From NCBI GenBank assembly GCA_020073085.1, contig JAIQFV010000002.1, positions 376,875-440,874 on the forward strand: DNA of 64,000 bases, written 5' to 3'. Under the pieces are notes generated by a model that saw only the letters and a list, made by a program, of their open reading frames with translations, searched no databases and was not told the DNA's origin. Made by a program: the position numbers and the translations under genes. This DNA comes from Terriglobia bacterium. GTDB lineage: Bacteria; Acidobacteriota; Terriglobia; JAIQFV01. Shown here piece by piece: positions 4,404-62,933 of the stretch (its first letter is position 1; each line of letters opens with the position of its first letter).

Positions 4404-4645
4404 GGTGTCAGGTATCAGGTGCCGGGTGTCAGAATGGAGCTATCAGCGATCAGCGCTCAGCTTTCAGCGGTCAGCTATCAGCTTGCAAGTTCAAAGCAGC
4501 CCTTGCAATGTCCAGCGGTTGGCTCCGGGACTGGAAGCCCGCTCTTCTAAAATATACCTCCCTAGTTTGTACAGGGGGCAGATGGCTGAGATCTGGTAGT
4601 GATCGCTGATAGCTGACGGCTGACCGCTGAAAGCTGACCGCTGCC
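4404..4645. repeat. bipartite intergenic element: inverted low-complexity arms (CAGCTATCAGC flavour) around a unique core
   Basis: Left arm about 4434-4482 (tatcagcgatcagcgctcagctttcagcggtcagctatcagc) pairs with right arm about 4597-4643 (gtagtgatcgctgatagctgacggctgaccgctgaaagctgaccgctg); fills the whole gap between convergent stops at 4403 and 4646. Confidence 0.75.
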
Positions 4646-5799: not shown

Positions 5800-6309
5800 C
5801 TACTTCTTCTCAGAATCTTTTTTCGTCCCCTCCGATGGCTCTGAGGCCATCTTCTGAATTTCAGGCATCAAGGCCATGACCCGTTTCTGGGTGACCTGCA
5901 TCGTCTTTGCAGTCAGATCCGGGGTTTTCTCGAGGAGCTTCTGTCCGATCGGTGATTTATAAAACGAGGTCAGCTCCTTCATTTCTGATTCCGTGAACAC
6001 CTCCATGTAAGCTTCGACAAAATCCGGTTTCAGAATGTCCCAGCTCATATTCTTATAAACAAAATCCATCACCTTCGATTGACGGGCTTCGACCTCAGAA
6101 GCCTGTTCTTTGGAGACGTTCGGCATCTGGAAGAACCCCCCGATCATCTTTCGCATGGATTCCATCTGCTTTGACATCATCTGTTTCGTCTGCATGGCTT
6201 CGAGAAGTTCTTCTGCCGCTGCGCGATGGGACGCTTCATCGGCATACAACACCCTGCTCAGGTGAGTGATCATGAGCAGGCAAAATACCCAGCATAATTT
6301 CCTTTTCAT
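5800..6309 (-). CDS. DUF2059-like periplasmic protein
   Basis: Signal peptide (MKRKLCWVFCLLMITHLSRVLYA) then a helical domain resembling DUF2059; GGAGG ribosome-binding site before the ATG at 6309. Confidence 0.5.
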   Translation of the reverse strand: MKRKLCWVFCLLMITHLSRVLYADEASHRAAAEELLEAMQTKQMMSKQMESMRKMIGGFFQMPNVSKEQASEVEARQSKVMDFVYKNMSWDILKPDFVEAYMEVFTESEMKELTSFYKSPIGQKLLEKTPDLTAKTMQVTQKRVMALMPEIQKMASEPSEGTKKDSEKK

Positions 6310-6343
6310 GGGCGGACCTCCAATTGAATGGTTGCAGTTCAGA

Positions 6344-6361
6344 GCAGACGGGGACGTCTGC
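6344..6361. repeat. REP-like palindrome GCAGACG-GGGA-CGTCTGC
   Basis: Perfect 7 bp inverted repeat in the roughly 60 bp gap between the amidase stop and the DUF2059 start; same GCAGACG core as the pair at 749-879. Confidence 0.6.
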
Positions 6362-6368
6362 TCCACGC

Positions 6369-8036
6369 TTACTTGGGCAGCTCCGCACTGGCACGGAATT
6401 GCGGTGGTCGCCGGTGCTTTGTGGCCTGCTCAAACGAGAAAGCCAGTTTGAGAAGTACGGGCTCGCTGTAGGGTCTTCCAAAGAAGGAAATACCGACGGG
6501 CAGGCCAAAAACATACCCAGCCGGAACCGTGATGTGGGGATATCCGGCCACCGCAGCCGGTGTCGAACTGCTCCCGAAGGAGGCATCCCCATTGACGAGG
6601 TCGGTAAAGGGGGGTGGTCCGGCAGTCGGCGTCACGATGGCATCCAGCTTATGCTTCTCCAGGGTGGCATCAATTCCTTTTTCCCGGGAAAATTCCAGAT
6701 CCTTGGCCAGCGCTTTCCGGTAATCCTCGCTATCGAGCGCCCCTTTTTTCTCCGCCATCAGGAGAATTTCCTGGCCGAAGAAGGGCATTTCCCGGGCGCT
6801 GTTGCGCTGATTAAATTCAATGATGTCCTTGATCGAGCGGACGGGCGCGTTGGGCCCAAGGCCCGCCAGGTATTTGTTGAGGTCCGCTTTGAACTCGTAC
6901 AGGAGAACCTCGAACTCGGAATCGTCAAACTGTCCGGCCGTCGCAATGTCGGCGGGGTCCACGATCACGGCTCCCTGCTGCTTCATCACATCGATGGCCG
7001 ACTCGATCAAATGAACGGTCGCCCCGTTGTAGTCGAAGAACTTCGAACGGGCGATACCGAGACGTGCCCCACGCAATCCATCCGGAACCAGAAATCTCGT
7101 ATAGTCGTTGAGGGCCTTGCCGGCGCTCTCATCCGTTGCTTCATCCAGCAGGTCGACGCCGGTCATGGCGCCCAGCAGGATGGCGGCATCGGTCACGGTG
7201 CGGGCCATGGGCCCTGCGGTGTCCTGGCTGTGGGCGATCGGAATGATGCCGGAGCGGCTGATGAGTCCGACCGTGGGTTTGATCCCGACGATGGAGCAGG
7301 CTGAGGAGGGTGAAACGACCGAGCCGTCTGTCTCTGTCCCCACGGCCACGGCGCAGAGGTTCGCGGCCACGGCCGCAGCGGAGCCTGAACTGGAGCCTGA
7401 AGGCGTGCGATCCAATGCGTAGGGATTACGGCACTGGCCTCCCCGCCCGCTCCATCCGCTGGAGGAATGCGTCGATCGGAAATTGGCCCATTCGCTCATG
7501 TTGGTCTTTCCCAGCAGGATCGCACCCGCATGCCGGAGCCGCGCCGCCACAAACGCATCCCGCGCAGGAATGGAACCCGCCAACGCAAGGGAGCCGGCGG
7601 TGGTAGTCATTTTATCTGCAGTGCCAATATTGTCTTTGAGCAGGATCGGGATGCCGTGAAGCGGCCCTCGGGGTCCTTTGGCCTTGCGTTCGGCATCCAG
7701 GGCGTCGGCCGCGGCAAAGGCTTCCGGGTTGATTTCAAGGACTTGATTGAGTACGGGCCCACGATGGTTCAAGGCATCGATCCTCGAAAGGTAGGCTTCG
7801 ACAATCTTGCGAGCCGTGTACTTTCCGGACTGCATACCATCCTGAAGACTCCGCAGGGTCGCTTCCTCCAGTTCAAAAGGAGCGAATGCTGATTTCTCTG
7901 CGGTCCTCTGAGCAAATTCCAGGTGCGGTAAGAAAGGTTCAGCGACAGCGAGGGCTCCTCCCAGCAGACCGGAATTGACAAACACCCTTCGAGTCATGTG
8001 ATGGCGAGCAGTGGCACGTTCTTCATCATGCGGCAT
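6369..8036 (-). CDS. amidase (amidase-signature family), probably Tat-exported
   Basis: GGSSGGS signature motif and conserved K/S/S catalytic context; N-terminal twin-arginine-like TRRVFVNSGLLGGALAV; AAGGAG ribosome-binding site before the ATG at 8036. Confidence 0.85.
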   Translation of the reverse strand: MPHDEERATARHHMTRRVFVNSGLLGGALAVAEPFLPHLEFAQRTAEKSAFAPFELEEATLRSLQDGMQSGKYTARKIVEAYLSRIDALNHRGPVLNQVLEINPEAFAAADALDAERKAKGPRGPLHGIPILLKDNIGTADKMTTTAGSLALAGSIPARDAFVAARLRHAGAILLGKTNMSEWANFRSTHSSSGWSGRGGQCRNPYALDRTPSGSSSGSAAAVAANLCAVAVGTETDGSVVSPSSACSIVGIKPTVGLISRSGIIPIAHSQDTAGPMARTVTDAAILLGAMTGVDLLDEATDESAGKALNDYTRFLVPDGLRGARLGIARSKFFDYNGATVHLIESAIDVMKQQGAVIVDPADIATAGQFDDSEFEVLLYEFKADLNKYLAGLGPNAPVRSIKDIIEFNQRNSAREMPFFGQEILLMAEKKGALDSEDYRKALAKDLEFSREKGIDATLEKHKLDAIVTPTAGPPPFTDLVNGDASFGSSSTPAAVAGYPHITVPAGYVFGLPVGISFFGRPYSEPVLLKLAFSFEQATKHRRPPQFRASAELPK

Positions 8037-8152
8037 TGTGATTCTCCTTGGTGTGCTTGCTTTTTCGACGACAAGCGATTGCATCGCAGCCCCCCGCTCA
8101 AGCGGAAGACGTTTCAAGATTTATTGCAGCGGGGAGTCTTTGCACAGATTTT

Positions 8153-8282
8153 CGATATTAATACAAACGTCTTTGAACATGTTACAAAATTGTGCATGAT
8201 TGAACGTGGGGGCGTCCGCAGCGGCGGACGCCCCTAATCCGAAAATTTCGCAATTACACCTTGTAACTCTATTTCCAACGTT
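8153..8282. repeat. about 130 bp repeat, copy 1 (contains an 11 bp-stem GC hairpin)
   Basis: About 80% identical over about 130 bp to 61073-61205, including ...aatac-aacgtc-ttgaa-atg-tacaaaat-gtgc...gattgaacgt, the hairpin GGGGCGTCCGC-agcg-GCGGACGCCCC and tgtaactcta. Confidence 0.7.
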
Positions 8283-8611
8283 TGGGCTAGCCGTAAACGG
8301 GGCCGTTTGCAAAACATTCAGTTCAGCCTCGATTGGGCCTGCTCCCACATGAGTGACCCGGTTGGATGACGCGCTGCAGCGGCGACCCATGATAATCACC
8401 TGAAACCGAGAGTTTGGCCGATCGTCAGTCGCCTCCGGCCCTGGCATGGTCCGGAATGCGGAAATCGGTCAAGCTTGTCCCTGGATTTTGCTCCTCCTTG
8501 CCTTCTTCGGTGAAAACCACGCGGATCTGAAGTAGAATGCCGAGGGAGCGTTCGTCCATTTGGACCTCGTGCTCCCTCCACAAACTAAAAATTAACACAG
8601 AGAGAATCACT

Positions 8612-10590: not shown

Positions 10591-10795
10591 AACAGGTGCC
10601 AGTTGTCGGTGAAGAGCAGTCAGCATTCAGCTCTCAGCCATCAGAAAACCCTATTGGGGCGACTAACGGGGTCTATTTCGAATTCTAGGCTGATCAGTCT
10701 CCCATTCAGATTCTTGGTCTACTGGTGTCAACTGATCGCTGAGGGTTGAGAGCTACCCACGGGCAACTGACAACTGAGAACTGACAACTTTCTTC
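10591..10795. repeat. bipartite intergenic element (CAGTTGTCAG / TCAGC flavour)
   Basis: Left arm about 10591-10645, right arm about 10724-10795 (caactgacaactgagaactgacaactt); the right arm overlaps the last roughly 13 codons of the ORF ending at 10753. Confidence 0.65.
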
Positions 10796-12517: not shown

Positions 12518-12752
12518 AAGAAGTTGTCAGTTCTCGGTTCTCAGTTGTCGGTAAGAGCTTTCAGCTATCAGCCACCAGCTTTTGGCGGGAGGCTTACTGG
12601 GGGTTGTAAGCATGGTTCGAAGCAGCAATTGACCGCTGATTGGAAATCAGGTCCTTGAACAAGAAGGCGATCCTCTGGTTCGGTTGCTGATAGCTGACCG
12701 CTGATAGCCATTACTGAGAACTGACAACTGAGAACTGACAACTTACTTCAGG
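12518..12752. repeat. bipartite intergenic element (CAGTTGTCAG flavour), best-preserved example
   Basis: Left arm 12518-12579 (aagttgtcagttctcggttctcagttgtcggtaagagctttcagctatcagcc) is the near reverse complement of right arm 12684-12752; unique core about 12580-12683. Confidence 0.8.
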
Positions 12753-19083: not shown

Positions 19084-19270
19084 GGTATCAGGTGTCGGGC
19101 AAGCTGTCAGCTTTCAGCTCTCAGCCATCAGCAATCAGCTTCGGACTTATTGAATGGGTGTATCCAAAGATGAATAGGCTTCTAATTTCATGAAATCCCG
19201 TCTCATTAAGCAGCAGCTCCTCTTCCTTGTGTTATCTGACAGCTGATAGCTGATCGCTGAAAGCTGGTCT
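19084..19270. repeat. bipartite intergenic element (CAGCTATCAGC flavour)
   Basis: Left arm ggtatcaggtgtcgggcaagctgtcagctttcagctctcagccatcagcaatcagc pairs with right arm gttatctgacagctgatagctgatcgctgaaagctggtc. Confidence 0.7.
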
Positions 19271-20679: not shown

Positions 20680-20899
20680 AGGGGGAAGGGAATAGATGAT
20701 AGGGAATAGGGAATAGGTGGAGAAGCTGGCAGCAAATAGGCGATTAGGGTTAGATAATAAGTGCCATGACCTCGTGCACGAATTCTAGTGAGACGTGGTG
20801 CAGCAACGGTCAAACCATTTGAACTCCATACCTAAAACCCATTCTCACTCACCCGTCACCTACCTGCTATTTCCTATCACCTATCATCTATTCCCTCAC
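20680..20899. repeat. bipartite intergenic element (GGGAATAGG flavour)
   Basis: Left arm gggaagggaatagatgatagggaatagggaataggtg pairs with right arm cacctacctgctatttcctatcacctatcatctattccctc. Confidence 0.75.
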
Positions 20900-24236: not shown

Positions 24237-24440
24237 AAGAGTTGTCAGTTCTCAGTTGTCGGTTCTCAGAATGCAGTAGCTAGTTCTAAGCCCTCATTTA
24301 CTGATCGGCGGGGAGAGTGAGGCACAATATCGCCAAGGTCAAGGGCTCATCGGTTACAACCAAATCTCTTGTCCTGGCCTTTGCTGACAACTGGGAACTG
24401 ACAACTGAGAACTGCTTTCCGGCAACTGAGGACTGACAAC
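24237..24440. repeat. bipartite intergenic element (CAGTTGTCAG flavour)
   Basis: Left arm gttgtcagttctcagttgtcggttctcag pairs with right arm ctgacaactgggaactgacaactgagaactg...gactgacaac; lies between the rlmI-like stop and the Hsp20 promoter. Confidence 0.75.
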
Positions 24441-34583: not shown

Positions 34584-34606
34584 GGAGGGTTTACGATTTC
34601 GTTGGA

Positions 34607-34632
34607 GGGGCGCCCGCCGCGGCGCGCGCCCC
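34607..34632. terminator. GC-rich hairpin between convergent genes, possible bidirectional terminator
   Basis: GGGGCGC...GCGCCCC stem followed by CTTT on the plus strand; lies between stops at 34583 and 34653. Confidence 0.35.
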
Positions 34633-34652
34633 CTTTGAATTCGAATAATCCC

Positions 34653-35852
34653 CTAACCCACCGTCGTAGGTTCCCGCCTCTCTACCAGTCTCGGTTCCAT
34701 CGAAGCAGACTCCTTAATGAGACTCCGGGCAATGACCAACCGCTGAATCTGATTGGTTCCTTCGTAGATCTGCGTGATCTTGGCGTCCCGCATATACTTT
34801 TCGATGGGATAGTCCTTGCAATATCCGTACCCCCCGAAGAGCTGCACCGCATCAGTGGTCACCCTCATCGCGGTGTCGGTGGCGAAGACCTTGGCCATGG
34901 CCGCCACTTTGGAGACGTTCTTGGCTCCCGTATCGAGCAATCGCGCGGAGTAATAGACCAGCTGACGGGCCGCTTCGACCTGCGTCGCCATGTCGGCCAG
35001 CATGAACTGGAGACCCTGAAAAGAAACGATGGGTTGCCCGAACTGCTCGCGGCCCCGTGCATACTCCAGCGCCAGATCGAGGGCGCCTTGCGCTAATCCC
35101 ACCGCCTGGGCCGCGACACCCGGCCGCGCATTATCGAGCGTCTGCATCGCCAGGGCGAAACCAATCCCTTCCTTGCCTCCCAGCAGATTCGCAGCCGGAA
35201 TGGAACAATCCCGAAAGTGCAGGTTATGAACGCTGACGCAGCGGATCCCCATGAGATCTTCCTTTCGGCCGATCACAAACCCGGGGGCGCCCTTCTCCGC
35301 CACGATGGCGCTGATGCCGCGCGTGCCTCGTTCCGGATCGGTGACGCAAAAGATGGTATAGATCTCCGCCGCCCCGCCGTTCGTGTTCCACTTCTTGTCT
35401 CCATTGAGGACATAGCCCTCCCCGCGTTTTTCAGCGCGAGTTTTCAAGCTGGCCGCATCACTGCCGGCCGTGGGTTCCGACAGCCCGAAGCTGATTAACC
35501 GCTTCCCGGTGGCGATATCCGGCAACCAGCGGCCTTTCTGTTCCTCGGTGCCTCCGAAAATAATGGGGAAGGATCCCAACGCGTTGACGGCATAAGCAAC
35601 CCCAACGCCGCCGCAGGCGCGCGAGAGCTCTTCAACAATCAGGCACAGATTCAAGACACCGCCCTGACCCCCGCCGTATTCCTTCGGGATCCACTCGCCC
35701 ATGAGTCCGTATTCCTTCAACTTTTCAATGATCTCCCAGGGATAGCGGGCCTCACGATCCAATTCTGCGGCAAGCGGGCGCACAAATTTCTCGGCTACCT
35801 CACGGGCGCGGGCACGGTAGTCAAGGTTTTCTGCGGTCAGCAGTTCATTCAT
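34653..35852 (-). CDS. acyl-CoA dehydrogenase
   Basis: Acyl-CoA dehydrogenase signatures in the middle and C-terminal domains (GLSEPTAGSD, QLFGGYGY) and a near-C-terminal catalytic Glu (IYEGT); GGAGGAGG ribosome-binding site. Confidence 0.9.
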   Translation of the reverse strand: MNELLTAENLDYRARAREVAEKFVRPLAAELDREARYPWEIIEKLKEYGLMGEWIPKEYGGGQGGVLNLCLIVEELSRACGGVGVAYAVNALGSFPIIFGGTEEQKGRWLPDIATGKRLISFGLSEPTAGSDAASLKTRAEKRGEGYVLNGDKKWNTNGGAAEIYTIFCVTDPERGTRGISAIVAEKGAPGFVIGRKEDLMGIRCVSVHNLHFRDCSIPAANLLGGKEGIGFALAMQTLDNARPGVAAQAVGLAQGALDLALEYARGREQFGQPIVSFQGLQFMLADMATQVEAARQLVYYSARLLDTGAKNVSKVAAMAKVFATDTAMRVTTDAVQLFGGYGYCKDYPIEKYMRDAKITQIYEGTNQIQRLVIARSLIKESASMEPRLVERREPTTVG

Positions 35853-43489: not shown

Positions 43490-43675
43490 AGTTGCCAGTT
43501 GCCAGTTTTCAGTTGTCAGTGGGAAGGTGCAAGAGTCGGCGGCCGGAAGACGGGAACCGGAAGCCAGAAGTCAGAGGTCAGAAACAAAAGGCGTGGAATT
43601 GTAGACTTTGAACTTTGAACCTGGAACTTTGAACCGGGGTTTCAGGACTTTGAACTTGAAACTTTGAACTGTTCT
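43490..43675. repeat. low-complexity intergenic block (GTTGCCAGTT, GGAAG/CCAGAAG and CTTTGAAC motif runs)
   Basis: Three different simple-motif runs fill the gap between convergent stops; arms are not clearly complementary. Confidence 0.6.
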
Positions 43676-52510: not shown

Positions 52511-52735
52511 CAGGTAATAGGGGATAGGTTTTAGGTGATAGGGAACAGGTTCCAGGCAATAGGGAAACAAGACGAGCGATCAATCCTCGGGACCAATAAC
52601 TCAGCCCGAACGATCAGTCGACGGCACATCTCTTGCATCGTTCCCCCAAGCCACCCCTGCCACCGATCATCAATTACCTACTACCTATTCCCTACTACCT
52701 ACCACCTATTTCCTATCACCTACTACCCATCCCTA
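52511..52735. repeat. bipartite intergenic element (GGTAATAGG / AATAGG flavour) between sdhA and sdhC
   Basis: Left arm ggtaataggggataggttttaggtgatagggaacagg pairs with right arm cctactacctattccctactacctaccacctatttcctatcacc. Confidence 0.75.
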
Positions 52736-54448
52736 ATACTTCCTCTCCACCGGTTTCCAGTTGGTAATCGTCACGGGCTTGTATTCCAGCCGCGGCTTAC
52801 CACCGGTGCAATACACCATGGAATGTGCCAGGAACTTTTCATCATCACGCTTCGAGAAATCCGTCCGGGAATGGGCCCCGCGGGATTCCTGGCGTGCCTG
52901 ACCGGCGAAGAGCAGCACCTCCGCCAACTCGAGCATGTTTTCAGTTTCCAATGCCTGGATGAGGTTGGTGTTGTAGATGCGGGTCTTGTCCTGGATGGAA
53001 ATCTTTCGAAAGCGTTGCCTCAGATCGGCAATCTTGTCCAGGCCTTCCTTCATGGAGTCGCCGGTGCGGTAAACCCCGGCGTGCTTGTCCATCAGTGTCC
53101 GAAGTTCACGGCGGATGAGGGCCGGGTTCTCCGTTCCACTTTGTTTGAGCAGACCATCAAAAACGCGGCTCTCTTCTTCCCGGACTTTGGCCTCCGGCAT
53201 CGCACTCAGCGTGGTGCCTTTGGTCAGGAACTTTGATATTTCACCTCCGGTAATGCCGCCCCACACAAGGCATTCGGCCGTGGAATTGCATCCCAGACGG
53301 TTGGCGCCGTGCATGGAGTGGCACGCCACCTCCCCGGCCGCCCAGATGTTCTCCACCTTGGTCTGGCCGTTGATGTCGGCCTCGATCCCTCCCATGGCAT
53401 AGTGGGCCACGGGCCGGATCGGGATGGGCTGAGTGATGGGGTCGATTCCCAGAAATTTCATACACACTTCACGGATCAGCGGGAGGCGGTGGTTGATGCG
53501 GTCGGCGCCAAGGTGGGTCATATCGAGGTTAATATAATCGAGCCCCTCGGGTCCCGGAAAACCGCGTCCCTCGAGAATTTCCGTCATCTCCGATCGCGAC
53601 ACGATATCGCGGGGCGCCAGTTCCATCATCTTGGGCGCATACTTTTCCATAAACCGCTCACCCTTGTTGTTGCGCAGGTAGCCGCCTTCCCCGCGACACC
53701 CCTCCGTCATCAGGATGCCCGAGGGCACCAATCCGGTCGGGTGAAACTGCAGAAACTCCGGATCTTCCAGGGGCAGGCCGGCGCGGAAGGCGATGGCCTG
53801 TCCGTCACCCGTGACGGTTTGGGAATAGGTCGTGAACCCATAGAGGTTCCCCAGGCCTCCGGAAGCGAACAGGAGCGCCTTTCCGCGCAAAACGTAGAAC
53901 TCACCGGTCGGGGCATCGAAAAGCGTGAGGCCGGCAAACCGACCGCCCTCGAGGAGCATCGCCGTGACGAAACACTCGTCGTAGCGCTTGAAGTTGTTGT
54001 ACTTGACCAGGGTGTCATAGAGGGCCTGCATTTCCATGAAGCCGGTCTTGTCGGCGGCCATGCAAGCGCGCGGGAAAGAATGCCCGCCAAACGGACGCTG
54101 CATGATCCGCCCGTCGTCGCGGCGTGACCAGGGGACCCCCCAATGCTCCAGGCGCCGGATCTCATCCGGCGAAGTCCTGACAAACCGATCCACCGTGTCC
54201 TGGTCCGCCAGGAAATCGGCGCCTTTGACCGTGTCCCAGGCGTGCAGCTCGAGGCTGTCTCCTTCCTCGGGGCGCATCATCGCAGCGGTGCCCCCTTCGG
54301 CACACACCGAATGCGAGCGCATGATCTGGACCTTCGACACGATTCCGATGTCGGCTTTGCCCTGCGTTCGAATGCAGATTTCCACGGCGGCGCGCAGTCC
54401 GGCCAGCCCGGTGCCCAGGATTAGTACATCATGAGTTATTTGTTGCAT
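52733..54448 (-). CDS. sdhA: succinate dehydrogenase / fumarate reductase flavoprotein subunit
   Basis: FAD-binding GxGxxG ([14 protein letters not shown]), covalent-FAD His region ([10 protein letters not shown]), conserved catalytic blocks. Confidence 0.95.
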
Positions 54449-54597: not shown

Positions 54598-54815
54598 TCC
54601 AATAAAACAAATTCCAGAATCCAATATCCAAAGTCCAAATAAAAACCAAATTCCAATGCACAAACTCCAAGGGAAGCCGATTCGCAATGCTTATATTTCG
54701 GTTCCCTTAAGGGCTTCACAGATGGTGGCCGGTCGTACCCATTCCTTCGTTTTAAGTGTTTTGAATTTGGTCCTTGGAATTTATTTGGACTTTGGATATT
54801 GGATTTTGGAATTTC
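54598..54815. repeat. bipartite intergenic element (TCCAATATCCAAAG / TTTGGATATTGGA flavour)
   Basis: Left arm tccaataaaacaaattccagaatccaatatccaaagtccaaataaa pairs with right arm ttatttggactttggatattggattttggaatttcc; immediately followed by the tandem array. Confidence 0.75.
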
Positions 54816-55250
54816 CACCGATGGGATGTTCAAAATTCAGACTGAAGGTGGCGGGTTTGGAATTTGTTTATTGGGATTTGGTTCTTATTTGGGTTTTGGA
54901 GTTTGGAATTTGGATTTTCCGCCAATGGGATGTTCAAAATTCAGACTGAAGGTGGCGGGTTTGGAATTTGCTTATTGGGATTTGGTTCTTATTTGGATTT
55001 TGGAGTTTGGAATTTGGATTTTCCGCCGATGGGATGTTCAAAGTTTGGACTGAAGGTGGCGGGTTTGGAATTTGCTTGCTGGAATTTGGATTTTGGAGTT
55101 TGGAATTTGGATTTTCCGCCGATGGGATGTTCAAAATTCAGACTGAAGGTGGCGGGTTTGGAATTTGCTTGCTGGAATTTGGATTTTGGAGTTTGGAATT
55201 TGGATTTTCCGCCGATGGGATGTTCAAAATTCAGACTGAAGGTGGCGGGT
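54816..55250. repeat. tandem array: five copies of a 36 bp core at 93-104 bp spacing
   Basis: Core GATGGGATGTTCAAAATTCAGACTGAAGGTGGCGGG recurs at about 54820, 54924, 55028, 55121 and 55214; inter-core sequence is low-complexity TTTGGAATTTGG...GGATTTTCC and nearly identical between units. Confidence 0.85.
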
Positions 55251-58310: not shown

Positions 58311-58325
58311 ACCCAGTATTTTCCT

Positions 58326-58440
58326 GGATTGGAAATTGGAAAGGTCTGACCCGAGAATTGGGATTGGAAATTGGAAAGGTCTGACCCGAGAATTCTTGCT
58401 GGATTGGAAATTGGAAAGGTCTGACCCGAGAATTCTTGTT
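58326..58440. repeat. 3 x about 40 bp tandem repeat (GGATTGGAAATTGGAAAGGTCTGACCCGAGAATTCTTGCT)
   Basis: Three near-identical units at about 58326, 58361 and 58401. Confidence 0.85.
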
Positions 58441-59823: not shown

Positions 59824-59961
59824 GTGGACCTGCCTGATGATGTTGGATTGGAACAACTTGGCAATGCCGAAGAGGCTTAGGAGAGGAGTTCCTAGATTCG
59901 TCCGGACCGCCGCGCTCGCTTACTGCGTTCAATCAGAAGATTGAATTTCATACACCCCCAT

Positions 59962-60475
59962 CAGGCCCGAAGGGCTGTCAGACTGTAGCCCCACCTGAAG
60001 CTCCGTCCCGCGTTCTTTGCGGGGCGGAGCGAGGGTGGGGTGCCAGTCTCCCCAATGATATCCGAGCCCCGCTGGCGGGGCGAAAGAATCTACCGAATGG
60101 TTCTTCGGACAACCCTACAATAATCCCCTGGCATGTTCCTCTCCGCACTGCTTTCTCTACCCCACGTTACCCTTACTCGTTTCACGAATTAGTGGACCCC
60201 AATTTCACCAGTCGAATTCTCGCAACGATATCGGAACAGTCGAGTTCTTCCTGGCAGCGGGAGCGCCCTCGGAAGATCTTGTTTCAGTGAGAGTGGCGTC
60301 CTCATTCCGAGTGCATGGAATCGAATATGTCATTCGGTGTACTTCGACCTGACGACATTGTTTCGCCCCGCAAGCGGGGCTCTCACATTTTCTCACCTCG
60401 GTACCCCACCCTCGCTCTCCGCCTACGGCGGACGGAGCTTCAGGTGGGGCTACAATCTGACAGCCCTTCGGGCCT
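59962..60475. mobile_element. about 515 bp non-coding element bounded by about 85 bp near-perfect terminal inverted repeats (MITE-like or structured RNA)
   Basis: Left end ggcccgaagggctgtcagactgtagccccacctgaagctccgtcc...cggagcgagggtggggtgcc is the reverse complement of the right end (60400-60475) apart from a few mismatches and one indel; each end also folds locally; sub-terminal hairpins GCCCCGC-tgg-CGGGGC and GCCCCGC-aa-GCGGGGC; no credible ORF. Confidence 0.5.
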
Positions 60476-60658
60476 AAAGGGCCAAAAGGGTTACTCGAGA
60501 AGCATCCACTAATGGGAATCGAATCTTCCTCCGACATTGATCGTGGCCTTCAACTTTGGAATTCGGGTCAACAGCGTTTCACCTCTTTGCTCGATCCCGT
60601 TCAGGGCGACCAGGCTGGTCGCCCTACCGCAGGGGTTCCAGCAACCGCTTGTGTCCCC

Positions 60659-61048
60659 TTATTTTTCCCGGTGATTTGAGTCCTTCCCCTCCGATTCCTT
60701 TGCTGAATCCAGCTTCCAGCCCTCCCGGATCGTGGTGCCCCCGCAGTAGGTCTTCGGGCAGCGGACATCATTCAGGCATTGCAGGATGGGGTTGCACGCA
60801 TCTTCCGCCGACTCGTCTTCCTTCATCGGGGCAGACTCTTTGCACGCGCCTGAATAGGCCGGATTGGTGAAAGTGCACATCGCCGTGGTGGCATTCGTAC
60901 TCAAACGCGGCAAAGGGACAGGACAAGAGCCGCCAAACAACGGGGTGGCGGCCACAATCAGGACCAGACAAGCCGCCATCGTGATAAGGAATGGGGATGT
61001 GTTGATAGATTTTGAGTCAACTGAAAGAGAATGACAAACACGCTTCAT
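60659..61048 (-). CDS. hypothetical Cys-rich secreted protein
   Basis: Signal peptide (MKRVCHSLSVDSKSINTSPFLITMAACLVLIVAA), ten or more Cys in the mature part; AAGGAGGAACC ribosome-binding site. Confidence 0.4.
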   Translation of the reverse strand: MKRVCHSLSVDSKSINTSPFLITMAACLVLIVAATPLFGGSCPVPLPRLSTNATTAMCTFTNPAYSGACKESAPMKEDESAEDACNPILQCLNDVRCPKTYCGGTTIREGWKLDSAKESEGKDSNHREK

Positions 61049-61072
61049 GGTTCCTCCTTTGAATCCCGGTCC

Positions 61073-61205
61073 TCGACTAATACGAACGTCGTTGAAAATG
61101 TACAAAATCGTGCGCGATTCAACGTAGGGGCGCATAGTCCGCCGCGGCGGACGCCCCTACAGCGAAGATTCCACAACTACCCCATGTAACTCTAATTCTA
61201 ACGTG
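61073..61205. repeat. about 130 bp repeat, copy 2 (GC hairpin with 5 nt bulge)
   Basis: Aligns with 8153-8282; hairpin GGGGCG-catag-TCCGCCGC/GCGGCGGACGCCCC and shared tgtaactcta; begins about 25 bp upstream of the start codon of the 60659-61048 gene. Confidence 0.7.
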
Positions 61206-61337
61206 TGTATTAAAAGGCCAGTAAAATCTCACAGGATACACGTGAATGAATGGCCATAATCAAATTGTTCCTGGAGGGACACCTCATCGACCAACCATGA
61301 AGAAGACCGCTCATTCAGCGTGACCGCATTCAAGGAT

Positions 61338-62933
61338 TCAACTTATCGCATCCCTTGAAAAAGTCCCGTCGACCATCCGTGAGATCCCCAGCGGGTTATT
61401 GTCCTTGAGTTCGTCGGGCAGGGCCGTCTCCGGAAAGGATTGATAGCACACGGGCCTTACAAAGCGATAGATGGCTCGAGCACCGACGGAAGTTGTACGT
61501 CCATCTGAGGTTGCGGGATAGGGTCCCCCGTGCACCATGGCGTTCGAGACCTCGACGCCCGTGGGGAAGCCATTGAAGATCAGCCGGCCCACCCTGGTTT
61601 CCAGGATCGCCAGGAGGTCCCTGAACTCTTCGAGATCCTTCTCGGTCCCATGGAGCGTCGCTGTGAGTTGTCCCTCCATCGTCCGCGCTACGTCCAGCAA
61701 TTGCTCCCGGTTTGAATGCATAACCAGCAGTGTCGTGGGACCGAAGATTTCTGCGCTCAGTTCGGGATGAGAGAGGTACGATGCTGCGTCGACAAGAAAA
61801 AGAGCCGGGCCGGCCTGGCAGCCCCCAGGTGCAGTGCGGATCGTATGCCCGACGACAGTCTTGACGCCACGGCGTTCCGACCGGGCTGACACTGCGGCAT
61901 GATACGCGGAGGAGATGCCCGGCGTGAGCATGGTGAACTCCCCGAAATTTCCCATCAGGGCCCGCATTTTTTCCACAAAAGCATCCCCCTCCGCGTCCTT
62001 CGCCATCACTACCAATCCTGGATTCGTGCAGAACTGGCCCGCGCCCAGTGTCACCGAACTGCTCAATCCTGCCGCGATTTGATCCCGTTTTTCCCGCATC
62101 GCGCCGGGAAGAATGAAAACAGGGTTGACGCTGCTCATTTCGGCGAAGAACGGAATGGGAACGGGTCGGGATGAAACCGCACCCATCAATGCAAGGCCAC
62201 CGGAGCGCGATCCCGTAAAGGCGGCAGCCCTTACCAACGGATGTTTGACGAGCGCTGTCCCGATTTCAAATCCGGCATCGTACAGAAGCGAGAAGACACC
62301 TTCGGGGAGGTGGCAGTCGCGCACGGCATCCTGGACTGCCCGTCCCACCAGTTCGGAGGTTCCGGGATGGGCGGGGTGTGCCTTCACGATGACGGGATTC
62401 CCCGCTGCCAGCGCCGAAGCGGTATCGCCGCCCGCTACCGAAAATGCCAGAGGGAAATTGCTCGAACCAAACACGGCCACCGGACCCAGGGGCCTAAACA
62501 GGGACCGGACATCCGGCCGGCGTTGAGGCTCGCGGTGGGGGTCGCCTCGATCGATCCGGGCATCAATCCACGAGCCCTCTTCAACCAGATCAGCAAAGAG
62601 CCGCAGCTGATGGCAGGTGCGACCGATCTCGGTTTGAATCCGAGCCGCCGGCAAGCCGGTCTCCTGGGGAGTGCGCACGAGAAGAAGTTCTCTAAGGCCG
62701 TCAACACGATCTGCAACCATGCGGAGAAACACTGCTTTCTCTCGGCCTGAAGCGTGGCTGTAAACCGCGAATGCTCGAGCTGCCAGCTCCACGGCTTCGC
62801 CGACTTCCTCCAGACTGGCGGAATAATAGGCCGGGGGGATCTGTTCACCGGTCGCTGGATTAATGCCATACAGGACCTTGCCTTGAAATGTCCCAGGGTG
62901 AAATCCGATGATCGACCTGCCAGTGAGTTCCAC
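61338..62933 (-). CDS. NAD(P)-dependent aldehyde dehydrogenase (alpha-ketoglutarate-semialdehyde dehydrogenase-like)
   Basis: Aldehyde dehydrogenase family with catalytic Cys region (GAGQFCTNPG) and Glu region (FAEMSSVNP); GTG start with AAGGAGGG ribosome-binding site overlapping the upstream stop. Confidence 0.85.
   Translation of the reverse strand: MELTGRSIIGFHPGTFQGKVLYGINPATGEQIPPAYYSASLEEVGEAVELAARAFAVYSHASGREKAVFLRMVADRVDGLRELLLVRTPQETGLPAARIQTEIGRTCHQLRLFADLVEEGSWIDARIDRGDPHREPQRRPDVRSLFRPLGPVAVFGSSNFPLAFSVAGGDTASALAAGNPVIVKAHPAHPGTSELVGRAVQDAVRDCHLPEGVFSLLYDAGFEIGTALVKHPLVRAAAFTGSRSGGLALMGAVSSRPVPIPFFAEMSSVNPVFILPGAMREKRDQIAAGLSSSVTLGAGQFCTNPGLVVMAKDAEGDAFVEKMRALMGNFGEFTMLTPGISSAYHAAVSARSERRGVKTVVGHTIRTAPGGCQAGPALFLVDAASYLSHPELSAEIFGPTTLLVMHSNREQLLDVARTMEGQLTATLHGTEKDLEEFRDLLAILETRVGRLIFNGFPTGVEVSNAMVHGGPYPATSDGRTTSVGARAIYRFVRPVCYQSFPETALPDELKDNNPLGISRMVDGTFSRDAIS

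Follow-up and report, generated by a model that had tools for sequence, protein, structure and literature searches.

A dispersed palindromic repeat of about 130 bp in Terriglobia is probably a non-coding MITE inserted at TA

Two similar repeats, named here copy A and copy B, lie upstream of two genes for secreted proteins in the window, that is, the whole stretch of 64,000 nucleotides analysed. Comparison with related sequences indicates that both are probably copies of a non-coding MITE inserted at TA in the intergenic DNA of an acidobacterium from soil, not yet cultured, and not a signal dedicated to these two genes. By published standards a MITE measures 50-800 bp, lacks a transposase, ends in terminal inverted repeats of 10-15 bp or more and is flanked by a target-site duplication of 2-10 bp (PMC11602168). 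The element is 127-131 bp long, carries no transposase and has no coding capacity, is bounded by terminal inverted repeats of 13 bp, has dispersed copies at unrelated sites (10 independent loci) and is polymorphic in its presence at the orthologous sites of the amidase locus. The TA flanks and a single empty site point to a target-site duplication, although one of 2 bp is inherently weak evidence. As far as the compared sequences indicate, the element is unrelated in sequence to Correia/NEMIS, ERIC and RUP, and its host lineage would be new for TA-terminated MITEs.

A MITE would explain a conspicuous repeat without a new regulatory RNA or regulon, and its main use is in annotation, with the caution that shared upstream sequence in MAGs is not to be taken as co-regulation. 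It would also document a MITE family, with a clean filled-versus-empty site, in uncultured Terriglobia, whose mobile elements are, to our knowledge, barely described.

The two window copies and the anatomy of the element

The similarity of the two repeats was confirmed by a MAFFT alignment (79% column identity over the shared block) and by blastn (79.4% over 131 nt, E = 4e-26), and three conserved sub-blocks occurred twice each in the 64-kb window compared to zero occurrences expected from shuffled sequences. The GC hairpin GGGGCGTCCGC/GCGGACGCCCC, the 5-nt bulge in the hairpin of copy B (CATAG) and the conserved tail TGTAACTCTA.TTC.AACGT were all present as the original prediction had described them, and both copies are located 5' of minus-strand genes with identical orientation relative to the gene. 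The boundaries first given, 8153-8282 and 61073-61205, had the location right but not the ends, as the right-hand terminal inverted repeat had been missed. With the ends set by the family alignment and the empty site, and including the flanking TA, copy A extends over 8159-8289 and copy B over 61078-61212. No third copy was detected in the window by a profile search, nor was the hairpin found there apart from the element; a weak profile match at 34597-34656 was discarded as an unrelated GC hairpin. The features of both loci are as follows.

8161-8287, plus strand (consensus orientation): copy A, 127 bp, imperfect palindrome, defined by alignments; nhmmer E = 4.6e-41
8159-8160, no strand: TA at the left flank of copy A, proposed target-site duplication, from the filled/empty comparison and the flank table
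8288-8289, no strand: TA at the right flank of copy A, proposed target-site duplication, from the flank table and the filled/empty comparison
8207-8236, no strand: GC-rich stem-loop at the centre of copy A, GGGGCGTCCGC-AGCG-GCGGACGCCCC, the stem being prolonged by T-A and G-T pairs
6369-8039, minus strand: amidase gene downstream of copy A (Pfam Amidase PF01425, E = 2e-96), outside the element
61080-61210, plus strand (consensus orientation): copy B, 131 bp, CATAG-bulge subfamily; nhmmer E = 2.5e-41
61078-61079, no strand: TA at the left flank of copy B, from the flank table
61211-61212, no strand: TA at the right flank of copy B, from the flank table
61125-61159, no strand: central stem-loop of copy B, TAGGGGCG-CATAG-TCCGCC...GGCGGACGCCCCTA
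60659-61048, minus strand: gene for a 129-aa Cys-rich protein downstream of copy B, ATG at 61048, outside the element
61338-62933, minus strand: aldehyde dehydrogenase gene upstream of copy B, last gene of a hydroxyproline-catabolism-like operon, transcribed in the direction of the Cys-rich gene

Copy A is located between two divergent genes, the amidase gene, whose ATG at 8039 is about 120 nt from the end of the copy and whose product has a twin-arginine-like N-terminus (TRRVFV), and a plus-strand gene for a secreted protein. Copy B is within the 290-nt spacer between the aldehyde dehydrogenase and Cys-rich genes, all on the minus strand, with about 29 nt, including an AAGGAGG ribosome-binding site, from its flanking TA (61078-79) to the ATG of the Cys-rich gene.

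The inverted-repeat ends became apparent from the alignment of seven, and then twelve, copies, and not from two. They are 13 bp long, with 0-4 mismatches in individual copies, and the consensus, of 133 bp with the flanking bases, begins with CTAATACRAACGT and ends with ACGTTTGTATTAG; the right terminal repeat of copy A is partly decayed (GGGC vs. GTAT in the consensus). Nearly all intact ends are flanked by TA, preceded by C or T on the left and followed by G, A or C on the right. Around its central GC stem of 11-14 bp (14 bp as TAGGGGCGTCCGCC/GGCGGACGCCCCTA), the element forms an imperfect palindrome over its full length, hence the internal repeats of AACGT and TGTAAC, and the central stem is flanked inside the 130-bp unit by GTAG...CTAC, so that GTAG is read on both strands. 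Either strand folds into one long hairpin, with free energies between -42 and -47 kcal/mol and z-scores between -1.8 and -4.8 (copy A as a whole, -46.8 kcal/mol, z = -4.8). The two halves of the element are about 65% alike, compared to 72-93% between copies at different loci.

Regarding coding capacity, the only homologue retrieved for the open frames of the element was a spurious ORF of the window itself: concatenated six-frame peptides gave no match to proteins, and an exhaustive HMMER search with the open frame of copy A retrieved only the ORF of the window. With its two or three open frames, the element gives rise to spurious ORFs (8121-8447 on the minus strand; 7998-8237, 8200-8352 and 61031-61189 on the plus strand) and to N-terminal extensions. 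An example of the latter is the minus-strand frame 60659-61135, the Cys-rich ORF with an 'MRPYVES…' extension derived from copy B, which in the NCBI record of the Terriglobia MAG SRVP_39 appears as a 158-aa gene.

Dispersed copies and the empty site

The family comprises 12 sequences at no fewer than 10 independent insertion sites, all of them intergenic, which are distributed among the genome of the window, SRVP_39 and three metagenome contigs. Seven loci belong to SRVP_39, two of them being the orthologues of copies A and B, found by synteny. A hairpin-only scan of species-representative genomes followed by BLAST revealed at least five full or 5'-truncated copies on five SRVP_39 contigs, the hairpin-only matches listed being mostly generic GC hairpins (Streptomyces, Chloroflexota and others). 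A stricter core pattern applied to metagenomes returned 25 stretches with three real copies, two of the three at contig ends, as with assembly-breaking repeats; such repeats break assemblies as well as creating spurious ORFs. No element was detected in viral contigs scanned with three patterns, or in plasmids and phages by BLAST. With identities of 72-93% among its copies, the family seems to be small and old, and also rare as judged from these scans. The neighbours of the copies used below are:

L090: rplT upstream, pheS downstream
L075: prfB upstream, ftsY downstream
L122: gene for a 282-aa protein upstream, M20 peptidase gene downstream
L121: Wzy-like (O-antigen ligase-like) gene downstream
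L151: GNAT gene downstream
L089: between divergent higBA-like and thiolase genes

Alignment of the DNA that flanks the different copies showed it to be unrelated, and the start codon is located at a distance of between about 13 and about 300 nt from the element, depending on the locus. The CATAG-bulge variant is common to three independent loci (copy B, L090 and L075), which indicates that a subfamily spread from a variant source copy. L075 and L089 are truncated at an identical internal position, directly beside the translation start of the downstream gene, and this common truncation point is not accounted for by simple decay. Beside the truncated copy at L089, two overlapping ORFs (6388-6958) encode near-identical peptides (…CEERS.TPLLPP.RQPA.SPRTTSGGGLQDS…), which points to a tandem duplication of about 230 nt.

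The decisive evidence of mobility came from the amidase locus, which is syntenic in three genomes, those of the window, SRVP_39 and JBGPTE01. The element occupies an identical position in the first two; in SRVP_39 its inner hairpin is decayed, and this is why the pattern scan had missed it. In JBGPTE01 (L157; amidase 86% identical) and in an identical JGI contig, Ga0534150 (L158), both flanks could be aligned and exactly the element was absent. The empty site reads ...CATTTGCCGA-TA-GTATCAAATTCC... (CCGA-TA-GTATC), whereas the filled site of the window reads ...CGTTTACGGC-TA-[element]-TA-ATATCGAAAATC... (CGGC-TA-[element]-TA-ATATC). Therefore, the element was inserted as a discrete unit delimited by its terminal repeats, and TA occurs twice in the filled site and once in the empty one. 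Support for a duplication of TA comes from the flank statistics and from this single empty site, the flanks of which have diverged (ambiguity of ±1-2 nt). As only 2 nt are involved, a true duplication is not strictly separable from the insertion, at a target TA, of an element that itself ends in TA.

At L075 and L122 the stop codon of the upstream gene, TAA, is made of the flanking TA and the first A of the element, an arrangement that would fit insertion into the TA of a stop codon. The copy B locus of a more distant relative (L163) has a 108-nt spacer without the element, its junction being too diverged to align. Both window copies are old, having been inserted before the lineage of the window separated from its sister species SRVP_39. 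The DUF2059 gene beside the amidase gene in the window (5800-6366) is also present in JBGPTE01 and absent at the syntenic locus of SRVP_39.

Mobilisation and possible effects on neighbouring genes

As a mechanism, we propose that a transposase supplied in trans would recognise the 13-bp terminal repeats and insert the element by cut and paste at TA, thereby duplicating it, in some cases at the TA of a stop codon. A TA target with duplication is typical of DDE enzymes of the IS630/Tc1-mariner type, IS630 using CTAG/NTAN. The same signature, insertion at TA with TA duplicated, is seen for the element, and by analogy we give about an even chance to a mobilising enzyme of this type. Neither a partner transposase nor an autonomous IS whose ends match those of the element was detected in the 1.25 Mb examined or in viral contigs, plasmids and phages. 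Once inserted, the element would probably be co-transcribed in the leader of the neighbouring mRNA or in the spacer between genes and fold there as a long hairpin. Should the element influence the adjacent gene, either by a weak outward promoter at its gene-proximal end or by hairpin-dependent RNA stability or processing, that influence would be a by-product, secondary to transposition and not the reason for the likeness of copies A and B.

The association with genes noted for the two window copies extended to the further copies, in which the element lies just upstream of genes. For the six copies located between genes of the same direction (copy B, L090, L075, L122, L121 and L151), the orientation with respect to transcription was identical in all six (two-sided binomial p = 0.03, in a small sample). 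The refuting condition set with the original prediction does not, therefore, go against it. A bias of this kind is not predicted by DDE cut-and-paste transposition, although selection may have kept or filtered effects on neighbouring genes, which could account for the uniform orientation.

The orthologues of copy B in the window and SRVP_39 differ at only 2 of 136 positions (99% identical) where about 19 differences were expected (P ≈ 1e-6), compared to about 85% identity (80-86%) in the flanking coding DNA and 96% in the intergenic region of copy B. Copy A, on the other hand, is 90% identical between both genomes, about the neutral rate, and its hairpin is lost in SRVP_39. As some nearby coding blocks reach 93-97% identity, the conservation of copy B could also be due to local recombination. 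The spacer of about 125 nt that separates copy B from the stop codon of the aldehyde dehydrogenase gene (61213-61337), which is outside the element, is also about 96% identical with SRVP_39, far above the coding DNA at its flanks, and may correspond to a regulatory region or to local recombination.

These observations raise the possibility, which we consider tentative and rather doubtful, that the transposed element has been exapted and is now an orientation-dependent cis element, acting either as an outward promoter at its gene-proximal terminus or as an RNA hairpin for processing or stability. Such exaptation is compatible with a MITE origin, to which it adds a further layer. It is favoured by the uniform orientation and by the conservation of copy B, and also by the location of copy B so close to the ATG that a dedicated promoter would lie inside or upstream of the element; moreover, effects of this kind are described for the MITEs Correia and ERIC (PMC2229807, PMC2649163). 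However, the promoter-like match is weak, with a recurring TTGTAA-N17/18-TATTAn at the gene-proximal terminus (7-8 of 12 positions) that is equalled on the opposite strand by a recurring TTGAAA-N16-CATGAT (8-9 of 12), relaxed matches of 7-9 of 12 being detected on both strands. A consensus scan of copies A and B found no canonical sigma-70 promoter with 16-18-nt spacing, although the promoter rules of acidobacteria are poorly known. Against exaptation are also the loss of exactly the gene-proximal end in both truncated copies, the decay of the copy A hairpin in SRVP_39, the roughly neutral rate at which copy A evolves, the absence of compensatory covariation, a possible local recombination that could account for the conservation of copy B, and a number of copies limited to six. 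The TTGTAA-N17/18-TATTAn motif was downgraded as a candidate sigma-70 promoter, as its -10 box lacks the final T, the opposite strand has equal scores and the truncated copies do not have the site. Should both the bias in orientation and the conservation of copy B between species be upheld genome-wide, the family would provide a tractable acidobacterial MITE recruited for gene expression.

More generally, it is conceivable but unlikely that the family as such is a strand- or orientation-specific element of Acidobacteria, either a domesticated portable cis-regulator (outward promoter or RNA-processing hairpin) maintained in a single orientation ahead of housekeeping genes and genes for secreted proteins, or a palindromic element with terminal inverted repeats moved as single-stranded DNA by an acidobacterial TIRYT tyrosine transposase, of a type that is poorly understood. 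The second option, if true, would bring MITE-like units, TIR repeats and hairpins tagged with GTAG under one mechanism. An improbable alternative to the cut-and-paste MITE is an element of the REP/BIME-like or TIR-repeat type that moves as a single strand by means of a tyrosine (Y1/HUH) transposase of the RAYT/TIRYT class. TA would then be the motif targeted or cleaved, and not a duplication, and insertion would be strand-specific with respect to replication. The uniform orientation would arise naturally from such a strand-specific mechanism, and the GTAG...CTAC around the central stem is the tag of GTAG-type REPs (PMC3733652). In Acidobacteria, TIRYT genes form a sharply defined group and TIR repeat families are moderately abundant, some of them dimeric and palindromic (PMC3733652). 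Also in its favour are a fragment of an IS200-like Y1_Tnp gene 4 kb from the copy A orthologue of SRVP_39 and the recurrence of the bare hairpin in other Acidobacteriota MAGs among the matches listed. Against this route, it is the complete 130-bp element, with its symmetric terminal repeats of 13 bp, and not the hairpin, that moved; its halves are less alike than are copies at different loci, TA is on both sides of the filled site and once at the empty one, and the copy number is far below that of typical REP families. Neither does the hairpin fit the published GGGGWSAS motif of TIRYT repeats, and no element sequence was found around the single Y1_Tnp gene examined (the fragment at 13807-14076 of L156).

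In SRVP_39, the region downstream of the amidase locus (L156, 12871-14813) contains an insertion of about 1.6 kb relative to JBGPTE01 with three small genes, one of which encodes the C-terminal part of a Y1 transposase of the IS200-like type (Pfam Y1_Tnp, E = 6.5e-7). Regarding the bare stem, GGGGCG(bulge)TCCGCC-NNNN-GGCGGACGCCCC was found without the rest of the element at L036, L042, L058, L074, L077, L082, L084, L092, L112, L114, L118, L127 and others, often flanked by gTA...TAc and sometimes with an asymmetric CAnnG bulge of the copy B type. Its hosts among the matches listed were several Acidobacteriota MAGs (at least four stems in one genome), Chloroflexota, Bacteroidota and many Streptomyces, and the stem may represent either a convergent terminator or a REP-like hairpin of wide distribution.

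When compared with known systems, a cut-and-paste MITE has close parallels in Correia, ERIC and RUP, which make up the class of TA-terminated bacterial MITEs (PMC2229807, Table 1). RUP of Streptococcus pneumoniae, which has been linked to IS630-Spn1 and to TA targets, is a short intergenic repeat of 107 bp that is non-coding, has terminal inverted repeats, inserts at TA and carries TA at its termini (PMC2229807), and the element matches it in size class and target. In contrast, the RUP terminal repeats match an IS630-family element in their own genome, whereas no partner IS of the element was found in the sequence examined; there are about 108 recent and highly similar RUP copies compared to about 10 old loci here (72-93%), and both the sequence and the host phylum are different. 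Correia/NEMIS (CREE) of Neisseria shares with the element a palindromic structure of about 105-155 bp, terminal inverted repeats, TA duplication and adjacency to genes (PMC2229807). These elements are co-transcribed, form long hairpins and can have promoters arising at their ends (PMC2229807; PMC2649163), and Correia/NEMIS would be the best functional analogue for an exapted element. Differences are the 24-26-bp terminal repeats, the IHF site, the demonstrated promoters, the RNase III processing and the hundreds of copies of Correia, for which the publications consulted gave no orientation rule comparable to that of the six copies.

ERIC/IRU of enterobacteria are imperfect palindromes of about 127 bp with TA termini that are transcribed with their neighbours (PMC2229807). 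They differ from the element in their unrelated sequence, phylum and shorter (7 bp) terminal repeats. De Gregorio and colleagues reportedly found in 2005 that the effect of ERIC on mRNA stability is orientation-dependent. Finally, GTAG-tagged REP/BIME repeats and the TIR repeat families associated with TIRYT, whose hosts include Acidobacteria such as Koribacter versatilis, resemble the element in having a GC-rich palindrome with GTAG, in being present in Acidobacteria and in the possibility of palindromic dimers (PMC3733652). However, REPs are units of 20-40 bp in high copy number, mostly downstream of genes, without target-site duplication and associated with a Y1 transposase gene, whereas the mobile unit described here measures 130 bp, is flanked by TA and ends in terminal inverted repeats, and no Y1 gene was seen in association with it.

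Tests of a dedicated regulatory identity, and other repeats of the window

The original prediction had offered three regulatory identities for the repeat, namely a shared promoter/operator module, a 5'-UTR RNA element and a divergently transcribed small RNA. None was supported as its primary identity. For a common promoter/operator, the evidence against was the unrelated nature of the downstream genes, the existence of the amidase locus without the element and the lack of a canonical sigma-70 site. No functional coherence was apparent among the downstream genes (amidase, Cys-rich protein, pheS, ftsY, M20 peptidase, Wzy-like, GNAT and thiolase).

A 5'-UTR RNA element found no support either: there was no Rfam match at the gathering score in the window and none in either copy at E ≤ 10, the distance to the start codon was variable, and RNAalifold detected compensatory changes in 0 of 36 pairs, with a covariation term of +1.83 (8 sequences of 86% mean column identity, and therefore of limited power). 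The pairs of the outer arms were often broken, as expected for transposase-binding repeats that decay independently. As for a divergent small RNA, no promoter-plus-terminator pair was found, and the consensus scan of copies A and B revealed no intrinsic terminator.

Two further candidate signals were discarded. The hairpin was rejected as an intrinsic terminator, as it is not followed by a T-run on either strand, and TGGAAATAGAGTTACA, judged by eye, was rejected as a sigma-54 site, its -12 element being TTAC and not TTGC, with TAG in place of GG in copy B.

It is thus highly improbable that the repeat is a non-mobile, dedicated regulatory sequence (operator/promoter, structured 5'-UTR or riboswitch-like RNA, or small-RNA gene) spread by segmental duplication, for although it is always intergenic and near a gene start, has a stable fold in the gene direction (z = -4.8 and -1.8) and is conserved between species in copy B, the flanks of different copies are unrelated, which argues against segmental duplication, the downstream genes have no common function, the amidase locus exists as an empty site, the start-codon distance varies from about 13 to about 300 nt, neither an Rfam match nor compensatory pairs were found and the covariation term is unfavourable, an intrinsic terminator and a canonical promoter are lacking, and the terminal inverted repeats and TA flanks would be left without a role.

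Other repeats were observed in the window. A second, unrelated family is represented at 59957-60089 and 60357-60481 by inverted arms of about 130 nt that are 77% complementary (91% in the inner 57 nt) and bound a segment of about 525 bp between the Cys-rich gene and a VKOR/DsbA gene. The segment (about 500-600 bp) has no counterpart in SRVP_39, the alignment at this site not being clean. Units of the same family were also found twice in L121 (4652-4781 and 6192-6306), near its MITE copy, and they may constitute another non-autonomous element.

At least nine intergenic sites of the window contain paired arrays of short tandem heptamers (4-7 units), with the two arrays inverted and separated by 85-160 nt:

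4438-4643: paired heptamer arrays
10615-10789: paired heptamer arrays
12523-12743: paired heptamer arrays
19102-19266: paired heptamer arrays
20687-20896: paired heptamer arrays
24240-24414: paired heptamer arrays
43490-43634: paired heptamer arrays
52512-52739: paired heptamer arrays
54609-54814: paired heptamer arrays

The heptamers are site-specific (for example AGCTATC, CTGACAA/CTGAGAA, AGGGAAT, AAAATCC/TTTGGAT and TACCTAC) and the sequences between the arms are unrelated; these arrays presumably resemble the STRR heptamer repeats of cyanobacteria. A 93-nt tandem repeat at 54885-55250 (3.8 copies, 91% matches) is partly made of TTTGGAT heptamers, and a 40-nt tandem repeat is present in three copies at 58324-58438, in a region poorly conserved with SRVP_39.
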